This document shows, one piece after another, positions 60,141-61,559 of a stretch of DNA of 64,000 bases. Position 1 is the stretch's first letter. The number at the start of each line of letters is the position of its first letter. The notes beneath the pieces were generated by a model that saw nothing but the letters and a program-made list of their open reading frames with translations, ran no database searches and was not told where the DNA came from. Source of the DNA: Terriglobia bacterium (GTDB taxonomy: Bacteria; Acidobacteriota; Terriglobia; 20CM-2-55-15). The stretch is from assembly GCA_965218585.1 (NCBI GenBank), contig CBDCLE010000017.1, forward strand, positions 71,470-135,469, in the 5' to 3' direction. The translations under genes were made by a program, and so were the position numbers.

Positions 60141-60554
60141 CTGGATTGATCGCCATGACTGTTCCTCCTAAGGGTACCCCATCTGTGGTCAGCGTCGAGA
60201 GTGCAAATCACTTCGGGCGATAACAGGCAGCCATAGGCGTCACGGGACGGTGCTTTTCTGTTGGGCATGCTGGGCTCATTAGTTCGTGACATGAGCCAAT
60301 CCCTTTCAGTGTGGTTGCTCTGATAATCCCGCCGGCAGGATGCCCCTGAACATTTAAAAACGTCACACAGGTTGTCCGTATTGCACGGATCTGTTTCGCG
60401 ACTACGTCTTTTTAGATAAGTCAATTCATCCACCGATGACGGGAGGGACTGATGGCGAGCAGGAAAGGAAAGGTGACGACAAAAGCCAGAGCGAAAACAC
60501 GTTTCAAGCAAGACGATCGACAGAGCCGAGCTGAAATTCTGTGAAGAGCCGGTC

Positions 60555-61559
60555 GTGCCGGTTCGAGAATTCACGCCAGACATCGGCCCGGAGCGCGCGA
60601 GTCTCATTCGCAACTCCGACCGGAAATGGGCGAACGGAACGAAAACCCATTACCATTTCCTGACCTCACCAGCGGGTTGGGTCGGCAGTGCGGCCGAGAG
60701 GCGAAAAGCCCGGGACGGCTTCCGCGCGTGGAAGAAGGTCGGCATCGGTCTGGACTTCGAGGAGGTCTCCTCGATGGACGAAGCCGAAATCCGGATCGCA
60801 TTCGAGCGGAACGCCGGGCACTGGTCCTACATTGGCCGCGACGTTCTCGGCATTGCTCAGTCCGACCGAACCATGAACATCGACAAGGGCGACAACTGGA
60901 CTGTTGACACCGCAATCCACGAAATCGGTCATTCCCTGGGCTTCCCCCATGAACACCAAAACCCGAACGCCGGGATCGTTTGGAACGAGGAAGCCGTCTA
61001 TGCCAATCTCGCCGCTCCGCCGAATCGATGGCCCCGAGAGAAAACTTTCCACAACATCATTCGCAAGCTCAACCCGGGAGACGTATCTGGCTCTGCCTGG
61101 GACAAGGATTCGATCATGCACTACCCGTTCAGGGCAGGCCTGATCGACCGTCCTGTCCGCTACCGGACGGAGTCGCTCCAGCCGACCCCCGGACTCTCGG
61201 CAGTCGACAAACGTGAGGTGAAATCCTTTTATCCCCGCATTGGCCCCCGTGATCACCGCACGCTCGAAGCGTTCGAGTTTGTGCGTCTGTCTCTTGAGCC
61301 CAGGAAGCAGGTGAATTTCGTCATTCGCCCGGCCGCCACGCGCAGCTATCGCTTCAGCACCTTTGGACGGTCCGACACGGTCATGGTGCTTTTTGAGGAC
61401 GTCAACGGAACCCCGCGTTTCAGCGTAGCTGACGACGACGGCGGTTTCGATCGCAACGCTCGCTTCACGACGCGGTTATTCAAGGGAAGAACCTATTACC
61501 TGCGTGTTCGTCTCTACTTCCAGCATCGACGCGGCGACTTTGGCGTCATGATGTGGTGA
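60555..61559 (+). CDS. astacin-like (M12A) zinc metalloprotease with a C-terminal beta-rich (PPC-like) domain; no signal peptide detected
   Basis: HEIGHSLGFPHEH (HExxHxxGFxHE) and the Met-turn SIMHY. GTG start. The N-terminus MPVREFTPDIGPERAS has no hydrophobic leader. Confidence 0.7.
   Translation: MPVREFTPDIGPERASLIRNSDRKWANGTKTHYHFLTSPAGWVGSAAERRKARDGFRAWKKVGIGLDFEEVSSMDEAEIRIAFERNAGHWSYIGRDVLGIAQSDRTMNIDKGDNWTVDTAIHEIGHSLGFPHEHQNPNAGIVWNEEAVYANLAAPPNRWPREKTFHNIIRKLNPGDVSGSAWDKDSIMHYPFRAGLIDRPVRYRTESLQPTPGLSAVDKREVKSFYPRIGPRDHRTLEAFEFVRLSLEPRKQVNFVIRPAATRSYRFSTFGRSDTVMVLFEDVNGTPRFSVADDDGGFDRNARFTTRLFKGRTYYLRVRLYFQHRRGDFGVMMW

Follow-up and report, generated by a model that had tools for sequence, protein, structure and literature searches.

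In matrix metalloproteinases (MMPs), a cysteine of the pro-peptide blocks the catalytic zinc. Myroilysin is built likewise, with a pro-peptide Cys that blocks its catalytic zinc (PMC9629494, PMC9848320). SCO6992 of Streptomyces coelicolor, placed by CDD in cd04327 (ZnMc_MMP_like_3), is the founding member of the NCBIfam family NF050131, whose name, beta-glucuronidase AbsR1, rests on one paper (PMC9705864). Here we describe a gene related to these in a 64,000-nucleotide (nt) stretch of DNA from a Terriglobia bacterium (Acidobacteriota; assembly GCA_965218585.1, contig CBDCLE010000017.1, positions 71,470 to 135,469), hereafter the window. At window positions 60452-61559, an earlier sequence-only reading had placed a 30-amino-acid (aa) basic open reading frame (ORF) followed by a separate astacin-like protease starting at a GTG. 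Our analysis indicates that this interval very probably holds one gene, split by one surplus T, whose 368-aa product is a zinc metzincin of the AbsR1/SCO6992 family and has no leader.

A single gene split by one base

The features that bear on the anatomy of the gene are the following:

60442..60446, +: Shine-Dalgarno-like GGAGG, read directly from ATGACGGGAGGGACTGATG (60436-60454), 5 nt before ATG 60452
60452..61559, +: probable whole gene, a 368-codon AbsR1/SCO6992-family metallopeptidase with one surplus T (1108 nt, i.e. 3n+1)
60452..60544, +: 30-aa Lys/Arg-rich ORF MASRKGKVTTKARAKTRFKQDDRQSRAEIL, in a frame one base behind the main ORF, with a good Shine-Dalgarno sequence
60502..60504, +: TTT run with the surplus T; blastn of contig L057 against the window leaves a gap at 60502, and L057 has TT
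60503..60554, +: main-frame coding sequence upstream of GTG 60555, SSKTIDRAELKFCEEPV, from three-frame translation, matching the homologues P0121 and P0001
60540..60551, +: invariant Cys in a C-x-x-P motif (CEEP), Cys30 of the intact protein, encoded by TGT 60540-60542; identified from homologue conservation
60774..61559, +: stretch equal to P0013 (261 aa), a public NCBI/ENA gene call from an internal ATG (Met74)

The 334-aa ORF of the earlier reading is present in the deposited sequence (60555..61559, +), and its GTG is the first start codon following an in-frame stop. Homologues were searched among 5.8 billion proteins, with matches counted as 90% clusters, and the closest of them (55-88% identity) are 355-396 aa long, against the 334 aa of the GTG ORF. 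Their N-termini follow the pattern MA-(K/R-rich)-...-CEQP-VVPVREF, as in P0001 (MASRKRKVTAKATTKTRAKARSKRYVSKAIDTAAMKFCEQPVLPVREFTPD...), and almost every full-length homologue has 20-60 residues ahead of the point where its match to query residues 1-10 starts. Three-frame translation showed that the main frame upstream of the GTG is open and homologous over 17 codons (...SSKTIDRAELKFCEEPVV); it gives ...KHVSSKTIDRAELKFCEEPVVPVREF, continuing the homologue N-terminus, and the TGT of the invariant Cys lies five codons upstream of GTG 60555. Since homology runs upstream and takes in this Cys, GTG 60555 is not the native start. The GGAGG lying 5 nt ahead of ATG 60452 supports that codon as such.

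The missing N-terminus was recovered from an independent assembly of the same locus. P0013 is 100% identical to the query across 78% of its length, and an exact-sequence look-up of the 334-aa ORF and of P0013 returned no encoding contigs. The 90% cluster of P0013 holds a second member, P0121, of 368 aa and starting with MASRKGKVTTKARAKTRSSKTIDRAELKFCEEPVVPVREF, through which we reached the ENA metagenome contig that encodes it, L057. This contig is 99.948% identical to window positions 50450-64000 (13.5 kb) and shares the gene order SSF transporter, DUF4212, PAS, transposase, phosphoesterase fragment, Fic, protease, 127-aa ORF and transposase. When one T is removed at 60502, the window translation from ATG 60452 becomes identical to P0121 over all 368 aa. 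The stand-alone 30-aa ORF and the GTG-start ORF thus appear to be an illusion produced by the surplus T at 60502-60504.

The anatomy first proposed, an independent gene for a 30-aa Lys/Arg-rich peptide beside a separate GTG-start astacin, has in its favour that both ORFs are present as strings and that the small one has a good Shine-Dalgarno sequence. However, codons 1-17 of the small ORF (MASRKGKVTTKARAKTR) equal residues 1-17 of P0121, with 12/17 identical to P0001, and so repeat the N-terminus of full-length homologues, while codons 18-30 are an out-of-frame read-through to a TGA with no counterpart among them; the main frame, moreover, is homologous for 17 codons ahead of the GTG, invariant Cys included. 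The basic ORF in another frame is therefore real as a string but is the displaced N-terminus of the protease, and the homologue N-termini, P0121 and the one-T deletion led us to reject a stand-alone basic peptide, whose likelihood is negligible. Programmed ribosomal frameshifting at the T-run is just as improbable: the two frames do overlap so that a +1 shift would join them, but in L057, as in every homologue, the protein is read from a single frame, and neither a slippery heptamer nor a stimulatory element is evident at CACGTTTCAAG. The L057 alignment effectively rules this candidate out.

Origin of the surplus T

Over the 13.5 kb, the window and L057 differ by three substitutions and four insertions or deletions (indels), and all four indels add one homopolymer base to the window: 54544 (A6 to A7), 60177 (C3 to C4), 60502 (T2 to T3) and 63649 (G3 to G4). 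The indel at 60177 lies between the Fic and protease genes and that at 63649 in the region downstream of an insertion sequence (IS). Two of the four, at 54544 and 60502, fall within genes supported by homology, and each disrupts a reading frame found intact elsewhere. The extra A at 54544 (ORF 54028..56325, minus strand) frameshifts an SSF symporter: 509 residues are identical before the break, after which the last 108 aa are replaced in the window by 171 aa of arginine-rich out-of-frame text, while L057 continues membrane-like. Such a break suggests that homopolymer errors are systematic in this record. Given that indels are as frequent as substitutions, are all +1 homopolymer changes and fall in one assembly, the pattern is that of sequencing error, and it is likely that the surplus T at 60502-60504 is a homopolymer error of the assembly. 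A point on the other side is that the contig name of L057 carries '4x', which may denote low coverage.

The T could also be real, leaving a fresh pseudogene or a truncated product re-initiated at GTG 60555, 11 nt past the stop of the small ORF, or at ATG 60774; without the polybasic tail and the invariant Cys, a protein made in this way might prove misfolded or constitutively active. The frameshift does stand in the deposited sequence, where the public call P0013 begins at an internal ATG, and the surrounding ~7 kb are decaying, with IS256/Mutator-type transposase genes cutting a phosphoesterase gene and an EEP-like ORF; these insertions are common to both assemblies, so real inactivation does happen at the locus. 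We nevertheless consider a real T rather unlikely in view of the 4:3 ratio of indels to substitutions, all +1 homopolymer and in the same assembly, and of the indel that breaks a transporter gene otherwise 100% conserved over 509 aa. Among adjacent same-strand ORF pairs in the window, no further split genes were found. The 261-aa gene call from the internal ATG should give way in the record to the 368-aa protein. For the window itself this has little significance: the gene is an ordinary one of a catalogued family, and its odd anatomy comes from a frameshift that is probably an assembly error.

Family assignment and catalytic domain

The domains and motifs of the protein were located as follows, with aa numbers referring to the 334-aa ORF:

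60597..61247, +: astacin/myroilysin-like catalytic domain, aa 15-231 (phmmer against the PDB, Foldseek)
60918..60956, +: zinc motif HEIGHSLGFPHEH, aa 122-134, comprising three His and two Glu, one catalytic and the other, of astacin type, following the third His
61110..61124, +: Met-turn SIMHY, aa 186-190 (direct read)
61254..61556, +: C-terminal beta-sandwich of the PPC / collagen-binding / enterotoxin C-domain type, with a GVMMW end (AlphaFold2 strands, Foldseek)
61542..61556, +: C-terminal GVMMW, conserved in homologues

NF050131 matched P0121 with an E value of 1.6e-104 and 349.8 bits, residues 28-368 aligning with profile positions 4-361 of 361, and matched the 334-aa ORF with 1.6e-103 (346-350 bits across both queries). 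The equivalog cut-off of this profile is 650 bits; because ~350 bits fall far below it, the name 'beta-glucuronidase AbsR1' does not transfer, and on its profile scores the protein is a member of the broad AbsR1/cd04327 family, not an equivalog. Pfam Astacin matched above its gathering score (E 5.1e-10, 39.8 bits against 22.5), though partially (profile 18-144 of 189), with Pfam Peptidase_M10 nearly equal (1e-8, 35.7 bits against 24). The best PDB sequence match is myroilysin (5gwd), with 9.7e-26 by phmmer and 1.8e-38 in a family-profile search; BMP1/TLL1, karilysin and astacin come far behind.

An AlphaFold2 model was built on the intact homologue P0001 (88% identity), with a mean predicted local distance difference test (pLDDT) score of 86.3 and a predicted template-modelling (pTM) score of 0.82. 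In Foldseek comparisons, it superimposed on mature myroilysin (5zjk) with a target-normalised TM-score of 0.89 (root-mean-square deviation (rmsd) 2.1 A, 214 columns) and on crayfish astacin (1ast/6saz) with 0.57-0.64. Set against the extended astacin motif HExxHxxGFxHExxRxDRD, as defined by established knowledge and PMC9848320, HEIGHSLGFPHEHQNPNAG has HExxHxxGFxHE with the family Glu, and RxDRD is absent. Conservation in 110 diverged sequences is close to complete for the zinc His (110/110, 110/110 and 109/110), the catalytic Glu (106/110), the family Glu (104/110), and the Met (109/110) and Tyr (105/110) of the Met-turn.

The description of the protein as an astacin-like metzincin, based on the zinc motif and the SIMHY Met-turn, is thus borne out by both motifs, the Pfam match and the fit to mature myroilysin. 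As to another metzincin family, the best profile is family-specific and stands between M10 and M12A, which puts the protein outside classical M12A while its astacin-like character remains.

C-terminal domain and N-terminal tail

The C-terminal region, which the sequence-only reading had called beta-rich, is modelled as a beta-sandwich over its last ~100 aa (P0001 residues 276-375, equal to window 61254-61556). Foldseek matched it to a collagenase PPC domain (5sv5, TM-score 0.76, rmsd 3.0 A), the ColG collagen-binding domain (1nqj, 0.64) and the C-domain of Clostridium perfringens enterotoxin (0.52-0.63; 6ake 0.63). Sequence identity to these structures is 9-13%, and Pfam PPC gave no match in the protein at E<=1. 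The 100 closest homologues show strong conservation of a terminal [GA]-[VIL]-M-[ML]-W-COOH, exactly GVMMW or AVMMW in 54 of them; in diverged sequences the last residue is W in 32/110 and F, Y or R in others. This conserved pentapeptide may be a last beta-strand or a terminal recognition motif.

The intact protein begins with a polybasic tail of ~29 aa, followed by a short Cys segment. Residues 1-30 of the P0001 model have a pLDDT of ~50, so that the tail is probably disordered; residues 31-60 reach ~76, with Cys38 in a beta-bridge. Such a tail is typical of the subclade of the window protein (median 24 aa, 33% K+R, net charge +7). What precedes the invariant Cys varies in modular fashion across the family, many members having a polybasic tail. 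A short coiled-coil-like I-x-E-L-E-x-R-L segment was seen in Microbulbifer, Pirellulaceae, Labrenzia, Ilumatobacter and Singulisphaera, and Cyanothece and Microcystaceae may carry an extra region of ~180 aa before the Cys (loci for the modular segments: L015, L019, L022, L026, L033 and L009, L010, L012).

An invariant cysteine and a possible latent enzyme

The Cys lost from the GTG ORF was found in 99 of the 100 close homologues, the exception being a truncated gene call, and in all 102 diverged sequences covering the column (110 in the set), as well as in all clades of the genome loci. Its conservation is on a par with that of the zinc histidines, it falls within the NF050131 match, and it is the sole Cys in 72 of the 100 close homologues, the window protein included. 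Three relatives with a signal-peptide-like hydrophobic N-terminus (P0171, P0217 and P0220) keep the Cys. Because these few secreted relatives retain it, the Cys segment would serve secreted and leaderless forms alike.

The proposal that this Cys caps the zinc comes by analogy with myroilysin, the nearest solved relative, and with MMPs. We give about even odds to the sole Cys acting as an uncleaved cysteine switch on the catalytic zinc. In such a mechanism, the protein would stay in the cytoplasm, where the Cys would cap the zinc and hold a latent endopeptidase, with neither secretion nor obligatory cleavage. Given that most family members are without an export signal, no maturation protease is expected, and without maturation cleavage removal of the cap would have to be reversible or chemical, brought about by an electrophile, by oxidation of the thiol or by a bound ligand. 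Displacement of the Cys by a ligand or a thiol modification would then open the enzyme, and the C-terminal beta-sandwich would hold the substrate or a partner. A precedent is CapP, a cytoplasmic metallopeptidase whose uncleaved cysteine-switch loop is opened by a ligand (bioRxiv 10.64898/2026.05.16.725639).

Several observations weigh against such a switch. The catalytic-domain model fits mature myroilysin (TM-score 0.89) better than its zymogen (0.67), so that the predicted conformation is not obviously capped, and profile alignments to pro-myroilysin, from phmmer and from a profile search of the PDB, stop short of its pro-peptide. The tail can hardly be essential to the mechanism of the family, since a net charge of at least +4 is seen in only about one-third of the tails of the diverged family. 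In addition, the sole experimental paper on the family reports a beta-glucuronidase and no protease activity (PMC9705864).

In that work, MBP-SCO6992 bound Zn2+ and showed no caseinolytic activity (PMC9705864), a combination that latency would explain. The protein could alternatively be a true beta-glucuronidase that uses the metzincin scaffold for glycoside hydrolysis: NF050131 matches over its full length, and MBP-SCO6992 was active on two artificial substrates, pNP- and AS-BI-beta-D-glucuronide, with a vector control run, and inactive on casein and azocasein (PMC9705864). The ~350 bits against a cut-off of 650 do not favour this, and the three His, the general-base Glu and the Met-turn Met and Tyr are 95-100% conserved family-wide. 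The fusion was made in the uidA+ Escherichia coli host JM109, the paper has no catalytic mutant, and neither a significant effect of Zn2+ nor a phenotype from glucuronic acid was seen (PMC9705864), while a lack of caseinolysis is also expected of a latent or highly specific peptidase. Complete conservation of the peptidase catalytic apparatus, as purifying selection on a metallopeptidase would produce, argues for peptide hydrolysis as the selected function, and we regard the glucuronidase explanation as improbable.

A more tentative possibility, to which we give only about one chance in four, is that the family consists of ubiquitous cytoplasmic astacin-like endopeptidases, held latent by a single Cys and switched by thiol oxidation, an electrophile or a polyanion, with 'beta-glucuronidase' as a misassignment; in the subclade of the window protein, the polyanion may act through the polybasic tail. 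If true, such a latent cytoplasmic class would weaken the view of bacterial astacins as sporadic xenologues from animals. What interest remains lies not with the window locus but with the family, which is widespread, has a single Cys that does not vary and carries a functional label open to question. The family is large, leaderless and without operon partners, the N-terminal Cys equals the zinc ligands in invariance, and the only characterisation of the family assigns a glycosidase activity to a conserved metallopeptidase site, latency being considered neither by PMC9705864 nor by the NCBIfam label.

Distribution and absence of a leader

Astacins had been described as uncommon in bacteria, which does not apply to this family: the search yielded 2772 matches among the 90% clusters, clusters of 50% identity number 216 at E<=1e-30 and 2734 at E<=1e-10, and 56 species-level genomes carry it. 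They span at least ten phyla, with hosts in Myxococcota, Acidobacteriota, Alpha- and Gammaproteobacteria, Verrucomicrobiota, Bacteroidota, Cyanobacteria, Planctomycetota, Desulfobacterota, Spirochaetota, Actinomycetota, Armatimonadota and Nitrospinota, together with a Methanococcoides metagenome-assembled genome (MAG). The archaeal MAG (L020, JAIORJ010000088.1, Methanococcoides sp.) encodes a full-length homologue with 49% identity and the Cys motif kept, which may reflect lateral transfer or a binning contaminant.

Even with the true N-terminus restored, the protein has no Sec or Tat leader, as the sequence-only reading had proposed for the shorter form. The highest 10-residue mean Kyte-Doolittle hydropathy of the restored N-terminus is 0.38, and the region contains no twin-arginine motif. 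An in-frame upstream start does exist once the frameshift is removed, and what it adds is a polybasic tail, not a signal peptide. A hydrophobic leader is absent from all 100 close homologues (highest 12-residue mean hydropathy 1.47 within the first 70 aa), and a signal-peptide-like N-terminus was seen in only 3-4 of 102 diverged representatives. With these counts, leaderlessness is a trait of the family and no peculiarity of the window copy; what had seemed distinctive is the rule in a catalogued family (NF050131 / cd04327; PMC9705864).

Export by a non-classical route, through a type I (T1SS), type IV (T4SS, as for Legionella LegP), type VI (T6SS) or type VII (T7SS) secretion system, would make the protein a secreted astacin after all. 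NCBIfam gave a weak match to LegP, a Dot/Icm effector (1e-4; 22 bits, cut-off 300), domains of the PPC and collagen-binding type are characteristic of proteases that are secreted, and the 3-4 diverged relatives have signal peptides. We consider this very unlikely, however: the hosts (Gram-negative, Gram-positive, cyanobacterial and one archaeal MAG) share no such pathway, the protein has a single Cys and no disulfides, and the search for T6SS, T7SS or contact-dependent markers that the earlier reading called for found none of them in 30 Pfam-scanned window ORFs (20 among the largest). These ORFs include housekeeping UvrB, a class II aminoacyl-tRNA synthetase, FolD, an M3 peptidase and ABC exporters. 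Nor did the 56 genome loci contain a conserved neighbour, the best co-occurring cluster reaching only 10 of them, and we therefore assign the protease no operon partner. PADLOC gave no match to the protease, which is thus not a known defence component.

Neighbouring genes

The protease had been placed between a Fic gene and an IS-disrupted EEP gene. The Fic gene is there, upstream (59067..60140, +; Pfam Fic 6.4e-18), and downstream an IS256/Mutator-type transposase gene does interrupt a 127-aa ORF, whose EEP label is sub-threshold (16.4 bits, E 0.0078, below the gathering score). The Fic gene also has a full-length PADLOC SoFic match (5.2e-47) and a C-terminal winged-helix-like region (DUF977/HTH matches), which make it a candidate single-gene anti-phage defence protein. 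Three transposase genes of the IS256/Mutator family lie in the 64 kb:

8413..9711, +: IS256/Mutator-family transposase gene
56901..58160, -: IS256/Mutator-family transposase gene
62033..63325, -: IS256/Mutator-family transposase gene, which cuts the 127-aa ORF

The copies at 8413 and 56901 share ~99% DNA identity. A PLC-like phosphoesterase gene is cut short by the copy at 56901, its remnant at 58127..58708 keeping only Pfam profile positions 1-143 of 356, and both IS insertions near the protease are common to the window and L057.

Comparison with known systems

The closest described system is AbsR1/SCO6992 of S. coelicolor, with which the window protein is collinear over its full length, from the N-terminal Cys through the catalytic and C-terminal domains, and with which it shares the absence of a signal peptide; its identity to a homologue from Streptomyces (L038) is 48%. 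In contrast to the window protein, that of Streptomyces has a short N-terminus without the polybasic character (L038: MAENLAEASVADVPPYCSQPP), and the LuxR-type neighbour SCO6993 (PMC9628970) is absent in the window. Beta-glucuronidase activity and stimulation of antibiotic synthesis are reported for MBP-SCO6992 only (PMC9705864).

Myroilysin, the best solved relative (29% identity), shares HExxHxxGxxHE, SIMHY, a Cys N-terminal of the catalytic domain and a two-helix insert after the zinc motif, which forms the 'flap' of myroilysin (PMC9629494). It differs in being secreted with a signal peptide and matured by pro-peptide removal, whereas the window protein has no leader, and in lacking both the C-terminal beta-sandwich and the polybasic tail. 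Classical astacins (M12A: astacin, BMP1/tolloid, meprins) have in common with the window protein HExxHxxGFxHE with the family Glu, SxMHY and a Pfam Astacin match above threshold, BMP1/TLL1 being the next-best PDB sequence matches. Unlike them, the window protein has no signal peptide, no FxGD aspartate-switch pro-peptide and no RxDRD (definitions in PMC9848320); it carries a Cys-x-x-P segment in place of FxGD, and its single Cys rules out their conserved disulfides.

The beta-sandwich fold is that of the PPC and collagen-binding domains of clostridial and Bacillus collagenases and of the C. perfringens enterotoxin C-domain; all of these act extracellularly, whereas the window protein that carries such a domain has no leader. 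CapP, which presumably differs from the window protease in fold and family, offers a functional analogy only. Both would be cytoplasmic zinc peptidases, and in CapP an uncleaved Cys segment is displaced by single-stranded DNA (bioRxiv 10.64898/2026.05.16.725639); the window protease has no CapH-like partner gene or conserved operon, and no evidence of homology links the two. Overall, the window protein is of an already-known kind, astacin-like in motif and fold and outside several of the features that define M12A.

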